64,000 nt of DNA from IMG/VR virus record IMGVR_UViG_3300048929_000185, positions 1 to 64,000 of that record. One strand, given 5' to 3'. Source of the stretch: a virus. A model generated the notes under the pieces. That model did no database searches. It was given only the letters and a program-made list of their open reading frames with translations, and was not told the origin of the DNA. Positions within the stretch are counted from its first letter, which is position 1. Each line of letters begins with the position of its first letter. Made by a program: the position numbers and the translations under genes. This document shows positions 12,190-48,775 of the stretch, piece after piece.

Positions 12190-12430
12190 CGTTATTCTCC
12201 TCCACCTTATACTTTTCCATTTCCTTGTAAAATTCAGTCTCTTCTTCATTATCTTCGGTATTGATTTTTACGACCAGTTTCCATCTCGTATCAAGATTTA
12301 GTACTGAGATAAACGACTTTGCATCAACTGATTCATGCCTGGCTGCAAGTCTGAGATCTATATCACTTTTGTACTTACTTGTGATTGTCACAAACTCTGC
12401 CACTTCCTCCAGATTTAATTTAATTTCCAT
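12179..12430 (-). CDS. HPr-family protein lacking His15
   Basis: FV...SKYKSDI...VDAKSFISVLNL (Ser46 region); no GLHARP motif. Confidence 0.8.
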   Translation of the reverse strand: MEIKLNLEEVAEFVTITSKYKSDIDLRLAARHESVDAKSFISVLNLDTRWKLVVKINTEDNEEETEFYKEMEKYKVEENNGEV

Positions 12431-12748
12431 TTACACCTCTCCTATTATTTTTTATTTACCATCATATGTACAAACACTTATTCACCGGAAAACAGTCTAA
12501 GTTCGCCGTTGCCATCAAAATCATCGTAATCAATAATTATGTCATTTCCATCTCTACGGAAAAGTCCTTTAATTTTCCTATCGTCTCTAAATGTGAGAGC
12601 GCTCTTTTTATTTTTGCCAATATAAAGATTTGCGTCAGGGGTCTCTTCAAACATTCTAATTAGTTCATTTAAAATTGCCATTCCTTGTGTCATTTAATAT
12701 TGTTTCACTCCTATCATGTATTTTATTTTGTATGTATTATTGGATTTA

Positions 12749-12780
12749 GTGGTATTTACATTTTGCTTGCTGCCACAAGT
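12749..12780 (-). promoter_or_regulatory. Leader element 1 (UGGCAG-loop hairpin plus AAAUGUAAAUACC)
   Basis: Plus strand GTGGTATTTACATTTT-GCTTG-CTGCCA-CAAGT. Confidence 0.8.
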
Positions 12781-12783
12781 TTT

Positions 12784-12855
12784 ATTACTATATTACCTTT
12801 GCTACTTCTTTAGTATATCATTACTATATTTCTCTGTCAAGGTAAAAAATAAAAA
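12784..12855 (-). promoter_or_regulatory. Repeated sigmaA promoter, copy 1
   Basis: TTGACA (12835-40)-17-TATACT; ATTACTATAT at 12784 and 12820. Confidence 0.88.
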
Positions 12856-13652
12856 CATTTTTCGACTTGAAATCCTAGATTTATTGCTCCAAACTTTCAA
12901 GAGCGCATTCAATAGCTTCATTAAAACCGCAACCGCCGTTATAATAACTTAATACATAGTCAATCGTACCGTCTTCATTAATCGAAGCATGATATATGTC
13001 ATCTCCGTCAGCTTCCACATCCTTGATTATTTTATAAACATTGTTGTTGCAAATTATAAATTCTTTACTACATTCATCACTAAAACATTCTTCGTATGAG
13101 CCATAATATGATCTCATTTTAATTCCATTTCGAATGCAGTATTCTTTACACCAGACTTCTACTGTCTGAAAGCTTGATATATCTATTTTTAATAATTTCC
13201 CTACATGAACTTCTGTCTGTGACATGTTAATTCCTCCTTTAAATCTCCAATTTTATTCATTACTTGTTGACTTATCTGTTCTGAGTAAATCTTTGTAATA
13301 TTTTACACTGTTATCGTAAGTTACGGTTGATCCCTGTGAATTATATCCGCATGAGCATTTATAAAATACCTGTGATTCTCCATACGAATACGAAATATAA
13401 CTCTGCATTAGCCTACTACAATTTGGGCAAAACATGTTATGCTCCATCTTAATCCTCCTTACTCATTTCCAAAATATATACATTGTGAACACTCATTATC
13501 GATTGCCACTTCTATCGCATCATCTACATCTTTTTTATGTACTTTCTTAACCTGATTCGTAAATTCATATCCTAAATTTTCTTCAATTATCTTTAATGCT
13601 TCTGCAAAACTCTCTACCCGTTCCCAGTTATTATTTACGTAGACCGTATCCG

Positions 13653-14894: not shown

Positions 14895-16076
14895 TTATTT
14901 TTCATTTAATAATCCTCCATTCTTTTTGTTAATTTTGTTTGATCTGAATTCCATAATCTTACTTTGCAAATATGCTGGCTGAACAGGATATTCTAAATTC
15001 AAGCCATTTAAAACGCTTTCATCATATCCAAGTAGTTTCACACACTCCAATGCCATATCTTTTTCAAAATAATCCAATTCTTCTTGAATATCAAATCTGC
15101 CGTACCTAATTAGTGCCGCATCTATTCTCTCTTTATAATTCGTTGTAGCAACGTAAATTGTGTTTTCAGTAGAATAAATTCCATCTAGTAATTGAAATAC
15201 CGCGTTCTGGTTATTATCTTTCTGCTTTTTACTTTCTATATCCAGCTCAACACCTTCAGTTTCTTCCCGACTTTTAAAGAACATATCGAAATCTTCAATT
15301 AATACAATTATGGTTCCATCGTATTTCTTACGCATCTTGAGAATTTTGTTAATTGAATTCATGATATTGGCAGGATCAATTGTTAATATCGGTGCATTTC
15401 CAAACATGGAACTTATGGCTTTCGCCACGGTTGACTTCCCAGTTCCTGGCTTTCCGTATAAAAACACCCCAATTTTATGAACTAACTGATGATTTTCGTA
15501 CCATTCTTTGCTCTTATTCCAGCTCTTTAAACCAGAGACTATCCTTTCTTTTACTTCGTCATCAAGGATTATGTTGCTGAAGTCGTGAGGTATAGTATCA
15601 CAAGTAACGTCAAACTCATTTAAAAATTGCACTCGTATGTGTTTATCATCTGTAATTTTAAGAGCGTCTTTTAAAAATTTTTCTCTGATTTTATATCTAT
15701 CTCTTCCATAAAAAATAAGTTTAAGACGAGGTTCTGGATAATATGTCTTTTCGCTTTTGTTCTTATAAGACTCAACCTTTATGTAATTACCCCTATTTAC
15801 TTTGACAAAATATGTAGTGTCGCTGCATAATTCATAAAATTCCTTATTTGTGGTTGGGGTTCTATGTTTGATAAAAGTGTCAGGATCTAGTTTGTATATC
15901 ATCTTATTTATGTTGTTGTAGGCATTATCCCACTCTCCAACGTCAATAACAGAACTCTTTAAACCCTTTATTATTTGAATCGCACTAGATATAGCTGTCG
16001 CTCCAATAGAAACCGCAACTCCTGTAGTTATCTGTTTTAAGACTGTATCATTTTTATTTGATATAATGTGTTCCAC
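14895..16076 (-). CDS. AAA+ ATPase (BCS1-like)
   Basis: GKPGTGKS, VLIEDFD, LLDG, TTN, IDAALIRYGRFD. Confidence 0.9.
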   Translation of the reverse strand: MEHIISNKNDTVLKQITTGVAVSIGATAISSAIQIIKGLKSSVIDVGEWDNAYNNINKMIYKLDPDTFIKHRTPTTNKEFYELCSDTTYFVKVNRGNYIKVESYKNKSEKTYYPEPRLKLIFYGRDRYKIREKFLKDALKITDDKHIRVQFLNEFDVTCDTIPHDFSNIILDDEVKERIVSGLKSWNKSKEWYENHQLVHKIGVFLYGKPGTGKSTVAKAISSMFGNAPILTIDPANIMNSINKILKMRKKYDGTIIVLIEDFDMFFKSREETEGVELDIESKKQKDNNQNAVFQLLDGIYSTENTIYVATTNYKERIDAALIRYGRFDIQEELDYFEKDMALECVKLLGYDESVLNGLNLEYPVQPAYLQSKIMEFRSNKINKKNGGLLNEK

Positions 16077-21279: not shown

Positions 21280-21966
21280 TTAAACTACTATATCTTGTAA
21301 TCTTTTATCTGCTATATTGAAATATGGCGTTTCTAATTCAGATCCAAGATAGTTTCTTTTTAATTCCTTGGCAGCAACCATAGTGGCTCCCGTTCCTATA
21401 AACGGATCAAAAACAATATCTCCTTCATTGCTTGAATTCAATATATAAAACTTTAGTAACTCAACTGGCTTCTCACACGGGTGTGTTTTATTTCCTATGA
21501 TATTGTTAAACTGATGAACTGTCTTGCTTCCTCCGATATCATTAATCCACTTTGCTTTACCTTTTCTTAGAAATAATACGTATTCACAATTTTTCATATA
21601 AAACTGTGATGGCGTACAATTGTTCTTTTCCCATACGAGCAAATTGTGCAGTTTAAATCCTGCCTTTTGTGATTCATTAAGCATTTCTGTTAGATTTAAT
21701 GAGTTTGTAAATATGTAAGCATGAGAACCAGATTTTAAAATTCTGTATAATTCTGGCATCCAATCGGATATTTTTATATTCTGATGCTTGAATAATTTTC
21801 TATTTCCAGACAGCATACCTTTTGGTCTTTCTGAATTTTTACCATTACTGTCTCCGCCGGTAATCGTCTTATATGGGGGATCTGTCACTATGAGATCGAC
21901 ACATTCTTCCTCCATGTTTTTCATTGCTAAAATTGAATCTTCATTCCGTATAATATTTGATTCCAT
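21280..21966 (-). CDS. N4/N6 DNA methyltransferase (beta class)
   Basis: TDPPY, HPCEKP and DPFIGTG motifs. Confidence 0.93.
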   Translation of the reverse strand: MESNIIRNEDSILAMKNMEEECVDLIVTDPPYKTITGGDSNGKNSERPKGMLSGNRKLFKHQNIKISDWMPELYRILKSGSHAYIFTNSLNLTEMLNESQKAGFKLHNLLVWEKNNCTPSQFYMKNCEYVLFLRKGKAKWINDIGGSKTVHQFNNIIGNKTHPCEKPVELLKFYILNSSNEGDIVFDPFIGTGATMVAAKELKRNYLGSELETPYFNIADKRLQDIVV

Positions 21967-22051
21967 TATTAACCAGAAAGGTAGAATTCTTTTGGTCGCG
22001 ACACCTTTATCCTTTCTGCATATTTTATTTTGTTTTTATGATTGATTTTTA

Positions 22052-22082
22052 TGGTATTTACATTTTTACGATCTGCCAATCG
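22052..22082 (-). promoter_or_regulatory. Leader element 2 (UGGCAG-loop hairpin plus AAAUGUAAAUACC)
   Basis: Plus strand TGGTATTTACATTTTTA-CGAT-CTGCCA-ATCG. Confidence 0.8.
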
Positions 22083-24514
22083 CTTATTCTAAATCCTTTT
22101 TAATCCCAATATTTGATAACTTATGTAATAATTTCGTGATTCTATATTTTCTTTTCCGTGGTTTATCTGATATGTATGCAATCCACACCAGTAATGGAGC
22201 AAGATATCCGCATAGTAATGTTATAACCATTGCAAATACTGTTTCTACTCCGAAGTATTTTGGATCAAACTCTTCCCCTCTCATATCGTGAACAATGATA
22301 CAAAATATTGTTACTAATCCAACTAAAAAGTATCCAATTCCAATAATATCTGCCACTTTCTCCTCCTTTAAGATACAGATTTTAACCATTATTCACCTGT
22401 TTCCACTTGCCCAGATTCTTCTAACCACTCTTCAATACAGGGGAGACATGTATAACACGAAATTGGTTCTCCATCCATAAATCCAGTCTCCAGTAGGACA
22501 TATTCACCTGCTTTAATTTCGTTCCCACAACCACCCAAACACTCATGTGGTTTGCGACACTTTACGATCTTTTCTTTATGATTTGTGATATCATCTCCAA
22601 AATCTCCACTATAAAATCCGCTATCTAAATACAATTCTTTATCATATTTCATTTTTACATCTCCTTTTCTCAGATGAAACTCGCCTTTTACTTGTCTTTA
22701 AATAGTTCAACCGCTTTCAATGCTCTTTCGTATTCAAGTTTTGCTTGATTTAATTTGGCTTCAGCCTTATCTTTCTCGTCTTTCTTTTTAGTAATTTCCA
22801 TCTGTTCTCTTATATCTTTGTAGATCTTCTCAATATTTGGTTCATCTACATTCCAAAATAGCCCGTCAAAACAGCTATAGTAATATGAGGTGTAGTATTT
22901 TGCGAAATCATTACCGACACTTGAAACTCTTGCATAATTCAAACATTCCTTTTTTCTGCCATCTTTGTAATATACAACCTCACTGTTAATGTAAATAACT
23001 GGATACTTTTCACAATGTAATACTCTATCAGATGACTCGTAAATTCTATAAATATATTTCTGTTTACTCAGCTCTTTTAAATTCAACATATTAGCTCCAC
23101 TTTCTCTTTCTAAACTCAAAATATTTTCCATCTTTGTTCCACATTCTGTACACTCCATCAACCTTTTCAAAATGGTCGACTTCTGGATAATTCCTATCAT
23201 CTAATACGTGTAAAATTTCATCACTAGATAATTCACAACGTCGCTTGTTTATGTATTCACTTAATAGTTCAATCGTTTCAGTTGGCATAGTTACCTCATT
23301 TCGTCTCTGTTACTGAACCATCTGCTCATTATCCCAGAATGTAAATAATTGAATTGACTCTTAGTGGCATAGTTCTTAAATTCCGAATCTTTGTACTTCT
23401 CGTGAATATCTACCATTTTGCATCGATGTTTCGCAAGTTTTGTTTTAAGGTATAATTCTCTGTCTATCGCCCATACAATTTTTAAGAAAATCAAAAACTC
23501 TTTAATCATATAACTCCTTTCACTTTTCAAATAAACTTCATCTTTTATTTCTAAAATATTTCCTTATTTTTTCTTTTGCTGAATCTATGATCTGTGACGC
23601 AATACACCACAAAATCACAACAACAAATATCGCAAGTACAATTAATCCAATGATATCTTTAATTGTAAAAATTATCATGTTCACTCCTTCTGAAAATATC
23701 AGTTTAGTTCTCAATATTAATATCTCTACGTTCACAAACTTTCTTCCAATATCCATACGGAAAAGTATAGTGACTTCCGTCCTTACATTCTCTGCACCTG
23801 CTACAATAATCTCTATCTTCCCACCAGCAAGACGAGCAGTCAGATATATGTGTTATTGAGGTTCTATGATTCATAACCAGTGATTCAAGTTTCTGTAAAT
23901 CATTAGTGTTATTTGCGAACGTTTGTATACAATCACTTGCACACTTCTCACGAATATACCATTTTATAATTGCGACCTTTTCAATTTTTTTCATCATCAC
24001 TCCTTACTACTCTGGAAAATACTAATTCAACAGAATTCACTTTGAAATTCGGATATGAAAGCATCAACCATTTTTTTCATCTCGCTATACGTTCCGATAT
24101 TTCCTTTTGCTGGATCGTAATTCATAGCAACCAGTGCTCTCAATTCTCCAAACGCTCTTTCTGCTTGTGCTATTTGCAAGTTATACGTATGACCATAGCT
24201 TAATCTTTCCAAAACATCACCTCCACGCAATCCTAATATAGCCTATTTATTAACCATTGCTCCGCATCATTTTTCTTTGTGAATATTACTCGTTTATTTA
24301 AATTCTTTAAACTAAACTCCATTGGTGTACCCCATTTACCATATAATCCATATACATAACCATGTGCTGTATAATCGCTGGTGAACACTTTTAAACAATC
24401 TGGAATAAACTCACATACTTTGTTTTTTTCGATAGATGACACATAAAGTTTATCACCTACCTTACACCCAAAATCATCAAACATAATGTTCCTTTCTACT
24501 TGTTCAGTTAAATA

Positions 24515-24796: not shown

Positions 24797-24868
24797 ATTA
24801 CTATATCGCTCTTACTACACTCTTATATTATCATTACTAGATTTCTTTGTCAATAGAAAAAATAAAAA
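24797..24868 (-). promoter_or_regulatory. Repeated sigmaA promoter, copy 2
   Basis: TTGACA (24848-53)-17-TAATAT; ATTACTATAT at 24797 and ATTACTAGAT at 24833. Confidence 0.88.
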
Positions 24869-33867: not shown

Positions 33868-34608
33868 CTATATTTTTCTAATACCCATTAACTTCTTCTT
33901 TAGTTTCTCTAATACTTCATTATCTTCGCAAAGTCTCGGATCTCCATTTTCTTCGCTTAACATTTCTTTACATGTCTCAGCTACTTTTTCTTTTGTTCCT
34001 TCAGAAAGAGCAGACCTTTTCGTGATTAGTTCCATACATTCAGCCTGTAGCTTATTCATCTGTAATACTGATTCTGGAGCATCTTCCTTAGTCCATAAGT
34101 TAAGCCCCACACCAAACATGCTTAAATTCTTCGCAAAACATCTCATTATTGCTTTATAGATATCTCCGAATGTCGCAGCCGGTACGGTTTTATTACCAAA
34201 TTTTGTTTCATATGTATAAGGCTCAAGTCCCATGCTTCGATATGAGGTGTCGTATACAGGCAGATTCATTTCCTTTTCAATACCGTCGATGGTAACAGAT
34301 GTTCTTACTTCTAATCCGGTATCGGTTACTGTATAGGGGATCTCCTGCTCGATGGTGGTTGTATCTTCAATTGTTGTGTTTTCATCGACTTTAGTGATTT
34401 TTTTGATTTCCCTCGTCTGTTTGTTCCTTTTAAAAGTGTATTTTACATCGCTAAAATGCTTACAAACCTCACTGTAAGTAGTCGCCCACGGTAGGTAATT
34501 AATTTTTGTTTTGCCAGTGTCTTTTTCAACCGACCTTTCTCTTGTGTCAATCTCGTAAAGGGTGTTAAAAACTGATTTTTCTAACTTCTTAATGTTAATC
34601 TCTTCCAA
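33868..34608 (-). CDS. Sak/DUF1071-like single-strand annealing protein
   Basis: YLPWA...EMNLPV...DIYKAIMRCFAKNLSMFGVGLNLW; upstream of ssb. Confidence 0.85.
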   Translation of the reverse strand: MEEINIKKLEKSVFNTLYEIDTRERSVEKDTGKTKINYLPWATTYSEVCKHFSDVKYTFKRNKQTREIKKITKVDENTTIEDTTTIEQEIPYTVTDTGLEVRTSVTIDGIEKEMNLPVYDTSYRSMGLEPYTYETKFGNKTVPAATFGDIYKAIMRCFAKNLSMFGVGLNLWTKEDAPESVLQMNKLQAECMELITKRSALSEGTKEKVAETCKEMLSEENGDPRLCEDNEVLEKLKKKLMGIRKI

Positions 34609-34662
34609 TCATTTTCCTCCTATTATTTTTGCATATGAAAAGTGAATTTTATCTCAATTTTA

Positions 34663-34709
34663 ATACTATATATTGTGTTTAAATCTTCTATAATTACAAG
34701 ATACAGTAT
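34663..34709. promoter_or_regulatory. Tandem NrdR-like boxes upstream of the replication operon
   Basis: ATACTATATATTGTGT (34663-78) and weaker TTACAAGATACAGTAT (34694-709), 31 bp apart. Confidence 0.6.
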
Positions 34710-34800
34710 GTATCAGCTATAATAAAGCGGATGTCCCCTATCTCCCAAATTAACACCTCCAATATTCAGTTTTAGTTATTTTAATTTTGTGATTGTTTTA

Positions 34801-34830
34801 GGTATTTACATTTACACCGCTGCCACGGTA
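34801..34830 (-). promoter_or_regulatory. Leader element 3 (UGGCAG-loop hairpin plus AAAUGUAAAUACC)
   Basis: Plus strand GGTATTTACATTTAC-ACCG-CTGCCA-CGGT. Confidence 0.8.
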
Positions 34831-37800
34831 TTATTTTTAATATACAGTCTTTATATTACTAATTTCCAACAATTACATCATTTGCCAAAATGCAGAATAT
34901 CTATTACCGTATGGCGGAATATAGATTCTCGTATCGTATTTTGACTCAAATTCTTTAGTTTTTTTGATAATCTCTTTTCGCAGATTCTCAATTTCCTCAA
35001 GATCTGAATTAAGTTTCTCCTTTAATTCTTTTTCTGCCTTTATAGCTCTCATTTTCTCTTCTTCAATTTGTTTTTCGTAGGCTACACACTCTTCTACTGT
35101 CTTAAATCCATCTTTACCATCTGTTGCTACAATTCTCATATCATTGTCCTCCTTAATTAAATATTATTTCAACCGTATGAAACGGAGATTTTAAAGTTTA
35201 ATTCCGCCTGATCTGTCTTCTGCAATCCAGTATCTATCATTGCCGCCTAAGTCTTTCTCTATTTCGTAGTCTTTAGGATTAAGCATTGTACATGTAGCGT
35301 TTCCAGTCTGTAAGGGTGAAAATAAATCGGTAATTCTTTTACCACAATTCTGACACTCTACAACTTCTGTACTAAAAAATCCAGAATATTCAATCTGGCT
35401 ATTGCCACAATTGCATTCTACATTAAAAGATTCTTCATCTTCGTGTAGGTTCCAGCCTAATTCAGAAATGCACTCCTTAAAACTCATCACCTTAAAATCT
35501 GTAACGTCTTGTAATTTTTTCACTAATTACCTCCTTATTTTAATACCGAGGAAACTCGGATTTTATTCAATTAAAGTAACTTTTCCATCGTTAAATTCCC
35601 ATTTCCATTCGCTGCCGTCTTCTCCTACAAAACAGAGAAACGACCCAGGTTCTACATATGTAGCAATTGCACTAAAAAATATTTTTTCATCTCCATATTT
35701 TTCTCCAACAAATTCAACATCACAAATATCTCCAGCCAAATTAAATATTGGTAAATATCTTATACCAGTTAATCCGTCTTCAAGTCTTTTACTATCAAGT
35801 ACAAATTTTGTAGACACCCATTTAAAATGAGGAATTCTTTCACCATCAATACTATCGTAACATGTCATATTTTCGGTAACAAACACACTTTTCAAGCTAT
35901 TTAGCGCCTTTGTAAAGTTTTCCTTTCTAATAATAAAATTACTATCTGTCATTTCTATAAGATACCCCATTCTATTCCTCCTTTAGTTTTACAATTTTTT
36001 CAATTAAATCAATATCTACACGACTTCCATCTATAACAAGTTCCCCACCGCTTCCAGATTCATACCAGATCTCTTCTAGCATTCCGTCTCTATGCCAACC
36101 ATTAAAATAGTATGCGGACACTTCATCTCCAATTTTCACCATGCTACAATCTTCATTTATTAATCCGGTTTTAACCATATGTACCGTTCCTTTCTCCTGC
36201 CATGAAACAGGTATTCTATTCTATTTAGATGCTTCCATCAATTTTGAAAGCAAAAGTTTTTCTTCTGCCGGCATATTATTAAACTTTGTAATTACGTCCA
36301 TAATATATTCTGCTTTATAATACGGGATCTCTTCTAGCTTTTTATATACTTCAGATAATTCCTTATTCAATTCTGCAACTGCATTTTTAACCTGTTCAAT
36401 TCTCGGCTTTTGATCGGAAACTAATTGGCTATACTTACAATATAAATCTTCGCTCTTGCTTATTTCTTCTTCCACTGCTTTCCTATATTCGTCTCTAACC
36501 TTTTTAGCATGCAATTTAAAATTCAAGAAACTATCTTCTAAACATTCGTCCATTGCACTAGTGTCTCCGACAATTCTATTTACAGTTTCTTTAATGTCCT
36601 TTCCTTTTAATTTAATGCAATCCATTATCAAATCAAAATACGGCTCTAGCTCATCATCAATATGCTTATATCCCATATATTCTCCTTTTCTCTTTAAAAG
36701 ATTTATTTTATCCACATTAGATACACCCACCACAGCTTCCGTGCCTCCAGTCCTTGCTTTGGAATGCGTCATAAATTTGGATTTTTAATTCATGATCAGA
36801 AGATATGTTATTTAACCAATAATTGTTTTTTTCGATCCATTCTTCACAAAACAATCCGTCATCATAATCTTCAAATACTTCACTCCACTCTTCGAAGTGC
36901 CATTCCTGATACGTTCCGTATGTATTCATGTCACTGCATCTTATGTCGTCTGGTATTTTATCTGAAACATCGATATCATCAACAAATAAACTCCATTTAC
37001 CGAAACACAAACACGGATATGCTCCACTCCATTCCACTGATACCATAATATTTTACCTCCTATTTAAAATAAACATCTTTATTTATTTCCATATTTTCAG
37101 GGCGCCATTCAAACACTGTATATGGATAATAATCATCAGTATTTTTGGTTCCAACTTCTAAGATTAGTTTATTATCGGACGAATATATTTGTAAAATATT
37201 AGCCGACTCAGACCAGTAATCATCGCTTACCTTATCAACAAATTCGCACCTCACTTTTTGTCCCGGGAAAACATTTTTAATTTCCCTATTTGTTATTTCA
37301 AGTTCCGTCATATAGCTTCTATATCCGTCTGCTTGATCCTCGGTCATAATATAATTAACACCATCAATGCAAAACAAGATATCATTACCGAAATCATCCC
37401 ATTCATCTTTAGCAGATGTTGACGGAATATAATCAACACCAGAAAATAGATGTTCACCACTTAAATCTCTTAGTTCCATATTTACTTCTCCCTTTCTTCC
37501 ACAAATAAATCTTTTCATTTATCTGCTAAAACTCAGTTTTCTACTACGCCTATCCGATCTAAAAACTCTTTTTCAGTCTGCCACCTAAGCGGATTCTCAA
37601 TGTCCTGGTACTCCCAACCCTCTCCGCAGCCTTCGTCTTCGTCAAAGTTGTAATACATGTAAGCGTGTGGATTTTCATCACTTTCGTCTGGAATTAACGC
37701 ACTATAGCTGTTATATGCCGGTACGTCTTTAAAACTGTATGTCTGCGGCATATCCTCATACGCTCCTCGCATAATACCATCTGCATTATTCCAAAGTATT

Positions 37801-37904: not shown

Positions 37905-37976
37905 ATTACTATATTTTCTTCCCTACTCTTATATCTTATCATTACTATATTTCTTTGTCAATAGAAAAAATAAAAA
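37905..37976 (-). promoter_or_regulatory. Repeated sigmaA promoter, copy 3
   Basis: TTGACA (37956-61)-17-TAAGAT; ATTACTATAT at 37905 and 37941. Confidence 0.88.
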
Positions 37977-46095: not shown

Positions 46096-46300
46096 TTAAA
46101 CGCTCTCCTCACCCATAAAATCAGCCTTCTAACGTCTTATTTTTCGCTACAACCCCATCATTGCTCTTAACTTTATACTCTATCCGTTCATGACACTTGG
46201 GACACTCTTCATATCTTCCATGCTGCTTTGCTTCGTAATGAATACCAGATTCCATCATACATTTACATCTATTGCACCACATATGTATTTCCTCCTTATT

Positions 46301-46360
46301 ATTACTATATATCTTTGCCTACATTTATAATATAACATTACTATATTTCTTTGTCAATAG
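46301..46360 (-). promoter_or_regulatory. Repeated sigmaA promoter, copy 4
   Basis: TTGACA (46352-57)-17-TATATT; ATTACTATAT at 46301 and 46337. Confidence 0.85.
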
Positions 46361-46366
46361 AGATTA

Positions 46367-46395
46367 TTGACTTTTTCTAATTATTTTTGTATAAT
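46367..46395 (+). promoter_or_regulatory. Plus-strand sigmaA promoter, back-to-back with copy 4
   Basis: TTGACT-17-TATAAT. Confidence 0.85.
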
Positions 46396-46400
46396 AAAAA

Positions 46401-46511
46401 AGTGCAGATATCTTCTGCACTTCTATCACAATTCGTCCGTTCAGGACAAATCGTGGTATTTACATTTAGTGGGTAAGGCGAGCCTGCCAGCGATGACCCT
46501 TGCCCATTTTT
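46401..46511 (+). ncRNA. Putative trans-acting small RNA
   Basis: Consensus promoter upstream; no ORF; three hairpins, the last (TGGGTAAGG/CCTTGCCCA) followed by T5; carries GGTATTTACATTT and a CTGCCA loop. Confidence 0.75.
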
Positions 46512-46514
46512 AAT

Positions 46515-46820
46515 TTAAACCGTAAGCGTAATATGTACATCTTCATATATGTATGTAAGCCAAAGTCTCTTATTTTTATCTATCTTCAAATCAGTCAAAT
46601 TCACGTACCCTATCGTTATCTTATTATCTAGATTTAATTTATCGGAAATGCGAATCTCATACCCCACCGGTTCCACAACTGCTTCTTCAAATAATATTTT
46701 ACAACTCCCCCAGCACCTATCACAAAATGGCTGCGTTATCCCGACACAAACAGTTTTGCCATTTCGTTTCATTATTTTTTCTTCTGCTACTTTTTTTTCA
46801 ATGTCAAGTTCCCCGTTCAT
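46515..46820 (-). CDS. Hypothetical protein under an SOS-box promoter
   Basis: GGAGG RBS, GTG start, CxxCxxxC. Confidence 0.7.
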   Translation of the reverse strand: MNGELDIEKKVAEEKIMKRNGKTVCVGITQPFCDRCWGSCKILFEEAVVEPVGYEIRISDKLNLDNKITIGYVNLTDLKIDKNKRLWLTYIYEDVHITLTV

Positions 46821-46852
46821 TCACATTTCCTCCAATTATTATTGATAAAAAC

Positions 46853-46927
46853 AGAACGTATGTTTGCCTTAATGAGATAATACCACTTTAGTTTATATGT
46901 GTCAAGCCCTAAATGAAAATACGTTCG
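46853..46927 (-). promoter_or_regulatory. SigmaA promoter with LexA/DinR-type boxes
   Basis: TTGACA (46900-05)-17-TATTAT; AGAACGTATGTTTG (46853-66) and TGAAAATACGTTCG (46914-27) vs Firmicute consensus CGAACRNRYGTTCG. Confidence 0.75.
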
Positions 46928-46951: not shown

Positions 46952-46983
46952 GTAAAAAAATAGACCGGATATTACCGGCCTAT
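46952..46983 (-). terminator. Intrinsic terminator after the MrpR-like gene
   Basis: ATAGACCGG-ATATTA-CCGGCCTAT with A7 on the plus strand. Confidence 0.7.
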
Positions 46984-47924
46984 AATCTATCTAAAAAGTC
47001 TCTTACATATGCCCCATATCTATATCTGACCACAGATAGTTTAGCAACTTTAGGAGATAATCCATATTCTAGCGCCCATAACTCAATTTGCGGGGGTTCT
47101 TTTTTGAGTTCTCTTGAATTGCTTCTATTATCCTTGAAGAAAATATCCTCAAGAACTTCTTCGGAGTAATTACACTTCCTGTATAAATAGTTAATAAGTC
47201 CTGACATATACAACCTCGTTGTTGTAAATCCAGTTTTTACAAGTGTTCCGCTAATCATATGCATAAATAAAGTATAGTTATCTTCAGATCTTGGGTGATC
47301 TGGAACCTTAACAAAACTATCTTTATATGCATCATACAAGTTGTAATTAAGAGATACCTCTGTTTTATTTCTACCAGTAGACTTTATTGTTTCGTAAGTT
47401 TCGATATTATAATATAATGAAATTGATTCGCAAAGTTTTTTAGATATATTAATTGTGTAATTTTTAAAATGTATTTCCCTATTTGCAAGATCAACATCTT
47501 CCTTTTTTAAATCATATATATCATTCTTTTCTTTAGCACCCTCATACAGTAGCCCTAGAATACAATCCCAATAAATCTTATTAATTTTAACCGATCTATC
47601 TAGTTCTTCTGGAAATATATATATACCCTCATTAATATAATAAAACAAATTGTCTGAAGACAATTCAATAGAATCGCTAAACGGATTGTATCCGGTATAT
47701 CCTTCAGATTTACAAGCTTCATACATTAACGAATACGCTTTTACATATTCGTCTACGGATTGACGCTGCATTTTACCATTGTTTTTAAAAGCAGCTTTCC
47801 AATCGTCTACTCCCATCTTCAAAATATCTTTTCCATCAATAACTTTTAATATTATATTTTTTATTTTTATGTCATGTTTAATACATAATTCCATTAATTC
47901 TTTCGATTCCATACTGACCTCCAC
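46980..47924 (-). CDS. MrpR/YopR-like repressor (degenerate integrase fold)
   Basis: YNPF...CILGLLYEGA...LKKEDVDL...TRLYMSG; lacks RHR catalytic residues; sits in the control region. Confidence 0.65.
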   Translation of the reverse strand: MEVSMESKELMELCIKHDIKIKNIILKVIDGKDILKMGVDDWKAAFKNNGKMQRQSVDEYVKAYSLMYEACKSEGYTGYNPFSDSIELSSDNLFYYINEGIYIFPEELDRSVKINKIYWDCILGLLYEGAKEKNDIYDLKKEDVDLANREIHFKNYTINISKKLCESISLYYNIETYETIKSTGRNKTEVSLNYNLYDAYKDSFVKVPDHPRSEDNYTLFMHMISGTLVKTGFTTTRLYMSGLINYLYRKCNYSEEVLEDIFFKDNRSNSRELKKEPPQIELWALEYGLSPKVAKLSVVRYRYGAYVRDFLDRL

Positions 47925-47934
47925 CTCTAAAAAT

Positions 47935-47988
47935 AGAACATACTTTCGCTATTATAGCTACTCTAGCACAAAGTATAGCATGTGTCAA
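47935..47988 (-). promoter_or_regulatory. Promoter of the MrpR-like gene with a LexA-like box
   Basis: TTGACA (47983-88)-17-TAGAGT; AGAACATACTTTCG (47935-48). Confidence 0.6.
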
Positions 47989-48346: not shown

Positions 48347-48775
48347 TTATGCTACAGTATTAGCATCTTCGTTATATACGAGTGCATTTCCATCAAGATC
48401 TCCATATCCATATGTGGCAGAAACCAAAAACCGCTTAAAGACTTCCCTTTGGATCTCTCTATCCGTAATGCTGCCAACCTTATCTATTACCCTACTTTTA
48501 TCAATTGTCATAATCTGCTCCGCAAGCAGCATCGAATCTAATTTTAATCCATTATCCCTGTTCGCCTCAATCAATAAATGGGTAGGCAGATCTTCTTTTT
48601 TGTACTCACTCGTCATTTTTAAAACCATCAACGTAGGAGAATATTTATTCCCAACATTATTTTGTATTACTATAGCTGGACGCACCCCACCCTGTTCCGA
48701 TCCTATATTACCATCAAAGTTTGCATATAGTACATCATATTTCTTAAATTGTATTTCTCGTTTTTTATACTGCAC
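48347..48775 (-). CDS. mazF: MazF/PemK endoribonuclease
   Basis: GSEQGGVRPAIVIQNNVGNKYSPT...EQIMTIDKSR, close to the NdoA/EndoA pattern. Confidence 0.93.
   Translation of the reverse strand: MQYKKREIQFKKYDVLYANFDGNIGSEQGGVRPAIVIQNNVGNKYSPTLMVLKMTSEYKKEDLPTHLLIEANRDNGLKLDSMLLAEQIMTIDKSRVIDKVGSITDREIQREVFKRFLVSATYGYGDLDGNALVYNEDANTVA

Follow-up and report, generated by a model that had tools for sequence, protein, structure and literature searches.

In the first 64 kb of the 123,206-bp viral record IMGVR_UViG_3300048929_000185 (IMG/VR; 33% G+C), hereafter called the window, the plus strand at 46367-46512 holds a transcription unit predicted to encode a small RNA. This RNA would carry two short stretches complementary to a small hairpin followed by a linear motif, which we call the tag and which stands ahead of four gene blocks on both arms of the genome. 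We consider it probable, though well short of certain, that the unit encodes a trans-acting antisense RNA with a regulon of its own, following the logic of P1 c4 and P4 CI RNA immunity. This reading is favoured because the tag hairpin is RNA-like and because a convergent, promoted and complementary unit is conserved with matched changes. The observations that carry it are the anatomy of the sequence, the covarying tag hairpins and the conservation of the system, with matched changes, in one relative.

The predicted small RNA and the tags ahead of gene blocks

A greedy call of open reading frames (ORFs) placed the genes of this phage on the minus strand up to ~68 kb and on the plus strand from 69.5 kb on. 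The gene content is SPbeta-like and includes Pol III alpha, DnaB, DnaG, Sak, NrdD, DNA methylases, a YonO-type polymerase, an Ant-like antirepressor, and a MazF-like gene. From SPbeta itself the phage is distant, the top Pol III match in the phages collection being 38% identical. Judged from the SPbeta likeness alone, the host is presumably a Gram-positive bacterium.

The small-RNA promoter, TTGACT-17-TATAAT (46367-46395, plus strand), matches the consensus at 11 of 12 positions and is free of the operator repeats of this phage. Six plus-strand promoters with at least 11 of 12 matches were found across the 68-kb minus-coded arm, and the site at 46367 alone has a 17-bp spacer. The predicted transcript of ~110 nt (46402-46512, plus strand; ends inferred) folds at -40.8 kcal/mol with a z-score of -5.45, and none of 200 shuffles folded as well. 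The predicted fold consists of hairpin 1 (46402-46420), hairpin 2 (46424-46458), and a third, terminator-like hairpin (46468-46508), the G+C-rich stem of which is followed by AUUUUUAAUUU and which is 5 kcal/mol better on the plus than on the minus strand. The seed GGUAUUUACAUUU (DNA GGTATTTACATTT; 46455-46467), with the last 9 of its 13 nt unpaired, lies ahead of the terminator-like stem, and the apical hexaloop of this stem is CUGCCA (46484-46489). No coding potential was read in the unit; a 48-aa ORF there begins inside the -35 box. The first-pass annotation had named the promoter (46367-95) together with an ORF-less unit of three hairpins, and all of these are present as it described them. 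The coordinates that it gave for the 13-mer (46455-67), the loop (46484-89), and their joint recurrence at 12751, 22053, and 34801 hold as well.

The 13-mer GGTATTTACATTT occurs exactly five times in the whole record, at 12751, 22053, 34801, and 46455 on the plus strand and at 68991 on the minus strand. The last of these lies beyond the window, within the plus-coded arm, where it is in sense with the local genes. Meanwhile, the copy at 46455, the seed of the small RNA, is antisense to the neighbouring genes; on the minus strand it is flanked by a stop codon and a terminator, a place with no obvious use for a leader element. The four sense copies share one design, namely a 4-bp stem, a UGGCAG loop, the returning stem, 2-3 nt, and AAAUGUAAAUACC, with the loop complementary to CUGCCA and the 13-mer to the seed. 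Their stems differ yet pair (CUUG/CAAG, CGAU/AUCG, ACCG/CGGU, and CUCA/UGAG).

Tag 1 (CUUG-UGGCAG-CAAG, CA, AAAUGUAAAUACC; 12751-12779, minus strand) stands ahead of the NrdD block and begins ~26 nt into the transcript from an 11/12 promoter at 12840-12812. Tag 2 (CGAU-UGGCAG-AUCG, UAA, 13-mer; 22053-22082, minus strand) is intercistronic, beginning right behind the stop codon of ORF 22084-22389 inside an operon, ahead of the N6/N4 and C5 methylases; no promoter with at least 10 of 12 matches was found upstream of it. Tag 3 (ACCG-UGGCAG-CGGU, GU, 13-mer; 34801-34829, minus strand) stands behind a weak promoter and ahead of Sak, DnaB, DnaG, and Pol III alpha. The fourth tag ("tag 5"; CUCA-UGGCAG-UGAG, 13-mer; 68991, transcribed on the plus strand) heads the arm of the YonO polymerase and the late genes, ~36 nt behind a 10/12 promoter. 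On both genome arms the tags are oriented with transcription. The three target sites proposed at first are all present, with the NrdD, methylase, and Sak/DnaB/DnaG/Pol III alpha blocks behind them as claimed, and the count of putative trans targets rises to four.

That these elements reflect a chance resemblance, or a functionless remnant of duplication, is very hard to believe. The genome is indeed A+T-rich, and near-matches of the 13-mer are no commoner than chance; the call of 11 found vs 5.6 expected covers matches with up to two mismatches, not exact copies. No further degenerate tag copy was found in the genome. Against chance stand the five exact copies of the 13-mer, which supplies two of the six 12-mers present at least five times in the genome. 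The loop points the same way: of the 51 TGGCAG/CTGCCA hexamers in the genome, five are flanked by at least three pairs, and four of these five are the tags. All four stem-flanked tag hexamers carry the exact 13-mer 6-7 nt after the hexamer. The stems also covary, and orthologues are kept in a second phage, as described below.

The tag leaders are otherwise unstructured (z-scores from -0.9 to +1.4). According to hand counts, ~45-255 nt separate the end of each tag from the ribosome-binding site or start codon that follows, and a G-free tract of 31-40 nt follows the three in-window tags. The fourth tag has no such tract, so the G-poor stretch that had been noted behind the targets stands for three of them and not for the fourth.

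When the small RNA was cofolded with each of the tags, 13-16 intermolecular pairs were predicted, with energies of -11.2, -10.9, -8.9, and -5.0 kcal/mol for the own tags of the phage. It should be noted that the cofold leaves kissing interactions out of the model. A genome-wide duplexfold of the small RNA, in which internal structure is ignored, gave mainly long imperfect duplexes. A partial match to the seed, AGAUGUAAAUGUA (window ~46250-46270, minus strand), falls ~17-29 nt into the 53-aa gene that opens the Ant operon; with a modelled cofold energy of -6.2 kcal/mol it may be a weak fifth target.

Matched changes in a related phage

A 37-kb IMG/VR fragment with two tags (G405) was reached through its Ant-like protein. 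Its genes stand in the same order: mazF (54% identical), a 311-aa gene (38%), a promoter with LexA-like boxes, a 97-aa gene, the antisense unit, an early promoter with an ATAGCAAT pair, a small gene (52% identical to the own 53-aa ORF of the first phage), and Ant (79%). The 97-aa gene has the same position as a 101-aa gene convergent with the small RNA in the window, to which it is 28% identical (E 2e-7). In the promoter of the G405 antisense unit, TTGACT and TAAAAT are kept at 17 bp, while the spacer has diverged. The unit has the same architecture of three hairpins (-43.3 kcal/mol, z-score of -4.99), and its antisense strand folds 5.4 kcal/mol better than the sense strand. A hand comparison of the folds of the two phages found both-sided changes in hairpins 1 and 3. 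The G405 loop reads CUGCUA at the position of CUGCCA, and its seed is GGUAUCUACGUUG.

The tag-3 orthologue of G405 (CUCG-UAGCAG-CGAG-A-CAAUGUAGAUACG; 15366-15394) follows the homologue of the gene upstream of tag 3 in the window. Its loop and two of its three changed seed positions match the G405 RNA, and the third position forms a G.U pair. Covariation of the small-RNA and target loops in a related phage, which the first-pass annotation had brought up, was thus found in G405, where loop and seed change together with the orthologous tag. The tag-2 orthologue, in the methylase leader (GCGAU-UGGCAG-GUCGC-AAAUAGAUACAC), keeps the UGGCAG loop, which pairs with CUGCUA through one G.U. The cofold energy of the G405 RNA with its tag-3 orthologue is -11.3 kcal/mol, and the cross-phage pairs range from -2.2 to -6.9 kcal/mol.

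In the six tags of the two phages, 24 of 24 stem cells pair and all four stem pairs change on both sides, which extends the earlier claim that the stems vary yet pair around a UGGCAG loop beside a complementary 13-mer. The covariation score of the tags was reached by 0 of 500 shuffles, and slid controls paired in 25-50% of cases. Judging from this pattern of substitutions, we conclude that the tag hairpin is an RNA (or single-strand) feature.

Two smaller observations concern the same elements. A small reading frame, MGDRGHP, follows tag 3 (window ~34715-34750, minus strand) and the G405 tag (L223 ~15437-15480, plus strand), in frame. The seed contains UACAU (46461-46465, plus strand), the cut site of MazF in Bacillus, and the window has a MazF-like gene at 48347-48775. 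A MazF site as a conserved feature of the seed is unsupported, since G405 has UACGU there despite its own mazF homologue.

Searches for further carriers of the system were made with several patterns. The exact tag pattern gave single matches per contig in the viral and genome contig collections, none with a 4-bp stem and a second copy, and the same was found among the matches listed for metagenome contigs; these matches are coding or due to chance. In viral contigs, the promoter/operator word had no match, and the seed-plus-loop pattern found nothing but G405 and chance matches. No match to 46100-46900 was obtained by blastn against the phages collection. An Rfam match for the small RNA, another earlier suggestion, failed to appear: at the gathering threshold the sole match in the whole window was a type-P5 twister ribozyme (Twister-P5; 62789-62858, minus strand; 51.3 bits vs a gathering score of 37.6) between small early genes, with no C4 or other family at the small RNA. 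A permissive Rfam scan of 46300-46600 gave three noise matches with E values of at least 1.5. In another relative, G404, the position of the small RNA (L209, 14280-14545) is taken up by a spacer of 260 nt that is poor in ORFs and contains a tRNA-like T-arm, GGTTCAAATCC between GTTGG and CCAAC; ARAGORN calls no tRNA there.

The control region and competing explanations

The 101-aa gene convergent with the small RNA (46515-46820, minus strand) encodes four cysteines at residues 25-40 and is served by a promoter of its own at 46905-46877 (11/12) and a terminator of its own at 46424-46398. The small RNA is exactly complementary to the 3' untranslated end of this gene (46514 to ~46398). The promoter region of this gene (46853-46927, minus strand) has two flanking LexA-like boxes (46914-46927 and 46853-46866) with two mismatches each. 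A third LexA/Cheo-box-like site with two mismatches lies at 47935-47948, so that three cluster in the control region. Window-wide, 12 such boxes were found vs 8.5 expected, which is not above chance. Similar boxes flank the promoter of the counterpart gene in G405, and by position and by their retention in G405 the LexA-like boxes are plausible.

The early promoter TTGACA-17-TATATT (46301-46357, minus strand) contains ATATAGTAAT at 46337-46346 and again, at a distance of 36 bp, at 46301-46310, and it drives the operon that has the Ant-like antirepressor as its last gene. It stands back to back with the small-RNA promoter, their -35 boxes being 9 bp apart. Five promoters (12820, 24833, 37941, 46337, and 68915) carry ATATAGTAAT in their spacer, with a second copy 36 bp downstream. 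The repeated promoter element, TTGACAaAGAAATATAGTAATG with the second ATATAGTAAT, spans 12784-12829, 24797-24842, 37905-37950, and 46301-46346 on the minus strand and G000:C1:68915-68960 on the plus strand. A further ATATAGTAAT pair at 67095-67150 (minus strand) has a spacing of 46 bp (67141/67095). Operator-like repeats are also found in the relatives, as ATAGCAAT pairs 37 bp apart in G405 and as AATAGATTGAAATAAAATTG pairs flanking promoters in G404. Tags 2 and 3 do not stand behind promoters of the ATATAGTAAT repeat family.

A 314-aa gene (46980-47924, minus strand) may encode the phage repressor, as suggested by faint matches to the integrase family (a tyrosine-recombinase likeness; phrog_5830 integrase, E 1.1e-4). 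It has a 38% identical homologue in G405, two homologues (53% and 47% identity) on short ENA contigs, and one weak match among 399 scored genomes (the class of an arbitrary Bacillales centre). No relatives were found in viral contigs, genome contigs, or the phages collection. No similarity to YopR/MrpR of SPbeta was seen by BLASTP or by profile comparison, a PDB sequence search returned none, and the AlphaFold model (pLDDT 47.8) was too poor for a fold search.

These features bear on the idea that the five copies act as DNA, either as repressor operators analogous to the SPbeta repeat SPBRE or as sites, hairpin promoters among them, that recruit the YonO-type polymerase or a replication protein. 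We regard this as improbable. The phage does encode a YonO-type polymerase, and we know of no described promoter for this type of enzyme. In SPbeta, as Kohm et al. showed (PMC10516654), the recombinase-like repressor MrpR binds SPBRE, a conserved 15-bp motif that acts as DNA, at ten promoters, and this repeat heads early operons, that is, the same kinds of operon as here. Our own derivation of SPBRE, made on the SPBc2 record from the ten regions that PMC10516654 names, reads ~TAGACAAATACAAAnAATATGTATATAA; it differs in sequence from the tag and overlaps the -35 to -10 stretch of the promoters, whereas the tags lie downstream of promoters or between genes. By sequence and position, the tag is not an SPBRE. 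Among 12-mers with at least four copies, SPbeta 50-134 kb has no tag-like repeat besides SPBRE. In the window phage, the promoter-embedded ATATAGTAAT pair would fill the operator role; it is likely, by sequence, to be the repressor operator and SPBRE analogue, and is a better candidate than the tag. Stems that vary but pair, with a U.G among them in tag 2 of G405, suggest a nucleic acid in single-stranded form rather than a duplex site for a protein. The orientation of the tags with transcription on both arms also speaks against a DNA role. A start at 46455 in the minus direction would moreover hit a terminator within ~40 nt.

Several observations weigh against a trans-acting RNA, and they concern the outcome, the strand, and the distribution of the system. 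No terminator-like site was found near the tags (12400-13000, 21800-22500, 34500-35300, and around the fourth tag; Rho-dependent sites lay outside the scan), and no ribosome site lies within 45 nt of any tag, so that the outcome cannot be read from the sequence. The RNA-guided regulation put forward in the first-pass annotation therefore keeps its support as far as a separately promoted, two-part complementary antisense RNA is concerned, and termination or antitermination does not, there being no terminator near the tags. The tests of strand are mixed: hairpin 2 is better by 4.7 kcal/mol on the minus strand, and the whole unit of the window phage, at -42.1 kcal/mol on the minus vs -40.8 kcal/mol on the plus strand, is equally stable on both. 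The fourth tag cofolds at -5.0 kcal/mol vs -6.2 kcal/mol for a tag-less control leader. In G405 the U-tract is poor (UUUAAAGUUU), and the tag-2 orthologue retains a 7-nt seed core with a cofold energy of -3.9 kcal/mol.

The system was found in two phages, one of them the 37-kb fragment with its two tags. G404 and G403 (reached via the polymerase), G406 (via Ant), and G001/L130 (via Pol III) are without the 13-mer, the tag, and a multi-copy spacer complement. Polymerase exon 1 of G404 is 89% identical, yet the system is absent there and the operator repeat is different. Its absence from G404, G403, G406, and G001 suggests that the system travels with the immunity region and not with the phage backbone. 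The runs holding the phage are three near-identical DNA runs from root metagenomes, two of which may be the source of the record, with no RNA run among them, and they showed no listed difference at 46300-46600 or at tag 3. Finally, matched changes among all copies would also be expected if one protein read them all.

The last point leads to the most serious competitor, to which we give a minor but real share of probability. The five copies could be cis RNA sites for one phage or host protein, either loading it in the manner of nut/boxB or serving as signals for RNA processing or stability. The copy at 46455 would then be one more sense copy, within the 3' end of the message for the 101-aa protein, and the plus-strand promoter would be incidental or would serve an RNA that acts on that message in cis only. 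A small hairpin with a linear box in a leader resembles the lambda nut site in shape, and RNA-level conservation in the sense direction is seen for both parts of the tag. A UGGCAG hairpin with a free 13-mer is present in the minus-strand 3' end too, which in G405 is a clean 4-bp AGGA/UCCU stem with a UAGCAG loop, and the greater stability of hairpin 2 on the minus strand fits such a site. The G-free tract shared by tags 1-3 is likewise left unexplained by pairing with the small RNA. However, the spacing between loop and 13-mer is 16 nt in the copy at 46455 vs 6-7 nt in the own tags, and, with G405 included, 16-18 nt in the 46455-type copies of both phages vs 5-7 nt in the six tags; a single protein site should not vary so. 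The copy at 46455 also stands after a stop codon and just before a terminator, and the hexamers of the antisense promoter are kept across a diverged spacer. The two differences between small RNA and tags are both G.U-compatible, although with two cases this would happen by chance about once in four.

Some features of the record lie apart from this question. The end of the record repeats its start over ~125-130 bp (window ~23-150 vs G000:C1 ~123079-123206), beside a short palindrome at 1-45; the repeats may mark a complete circle or att repeats, though the record carries the label linear, with 62% completeness. In the plus arm, the first gene (L005:1768-2012 = G000:C1:69258-69502, plus strand) has a frame open for 77 codons upstream of its ATG, with a ribosome site, AAGGAGGG, 5 nt ahead of an in-frame ATT. 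This suggests that the gene is probably longer than called and starts at ATT.

Known RNA systems and the proposed mechanism

The antisense RNA proposed here shares parts with several known systems. The c4 RNA acts at the ribosome site of one leader, that of the ant operon, and is cut out of the same transcript. As a review describes it (PMC12197685), c4 of P1/P7 is a small, immunity-type-specific phage RNA that pairs via two short complementary stretches, and its specificity shifts through matched changes on both sides. The RNA stretches in the window are of the same kind, with a 6-nt loop and a 13-16-nt seed exact in four of four tags. Unlike c4, the small RNA would have its own promoter and four targets dispersed over both arms, up to ~34 kb off and none at a ribosome site, and it has no Rfam C4 match. 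The P4 CI RNA is, according to PMC4825925, an immunity factor that pairs with repeated complementary sites (seqA/seqC) of the lytic transcript. P4 CI is processed from its own controlled leader and causes premature termination at nearby terminators, whereas the unit in the window is, judged by sequence, separate, with a predicted promoter of its own convergent with the neighbour gene, and has no terminator-like site near its tags.

Contact through a hexaloop first, followed by extension via an adjacent single strand, is known from CopA/CopT of plasmid R1 and from the Inc RNA of I-complex plasmids. Complementary apical hexaloops are likewise predicted here (CUGCCA/UGGCAG, and CUGCUA/UAGCAG in G405). 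The plasmid RNAs are cis-encoded, fully complementary, and have a single target, in contrast to the 6 + 13-16 nt and several trans targets in the window. In a Bacillus prophage, SR6 and yonT provide a convergent small RNA that overlaps a message 3' end, and RNase III silences prophage toxin messages (PMC5848175 and PMC3531473). That arrangement concerns one toxin gene in cis, whereas the present one would combine a cis overlap with a non-toxin-like 101-aa gene and four trans tags. According to a recent preprint (10.1101/2025.11.23.689978), what had been regarded as an antisense RNA of arbitrium works through a 29-aa peptide; in the predicted transcript in the window, no plausible reading frame was read.

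With respect to expression, direction of regulation, and molecular outcome, we infer the following course of events. The host sigma-A polymerase would transcribe the small RNA from the 46367 promoter, and as this promoter is without the operator repeat, the RNA would be made in lysogens. A loop-loop contact, followed by a seed duplex of 13-16 bp, would mark the four transcripts. The likeliest outcome would be cleavage and decay of the downstream message, or its premature release, and the lytic blocks would thereby stay silent in lysogens and upon superinfection. Such an RNA layer would be specific to the immunity type and would act beside the operator-bound repressor in the control of lysis and lysogeny. 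The 101-aa gene is possibly SOS-controlled, and its induction could titrate the small RNA or collide with its transcription.

A more speculative extension, to which we lend limited credence, is a two-key lysogeny lock in SPbeta-type phages of this immunity group, opened by DNA damage. One key would be the repressor on the promoter operators and the other the constitutive small RNA on four lytic operons, two of which are without the operator pair. The convergent gene, under SOS control through LexA, would disarm both, its message serving as an RNA sponge and its product maybe as an antirepressor. Changes of loop and seed would then amount to heteroimmunity of related phages at the RNA level.

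The known cases of phage immunity through RNA are few and Gram-negative (P1/P7 c4, P4 CI, and N15), and in each of them one RNA acts on an adjacent leader. In the SPbeta family, research has focused on arbitrium, MrpR, and MazF. Full-text literature searches, judged by titles and the beginnings of abstracts, found no such RNA layer described. A 2025 review of phage small RNAs leaves Bacillus and Gram-positive hosts unmentioned (PMC12197685). The system in the window is small and modular, consisting of a 6-nt loop, a 13-nt seed, and a 14-nt hairpin, with natural matched variants in a second phage, and it could serve as an orthogonal multi-target RNA switch. If the proposed reading is true, one separately promoted RNA would address four distant operons on both arms of the phage genome, beside a protein repressor.

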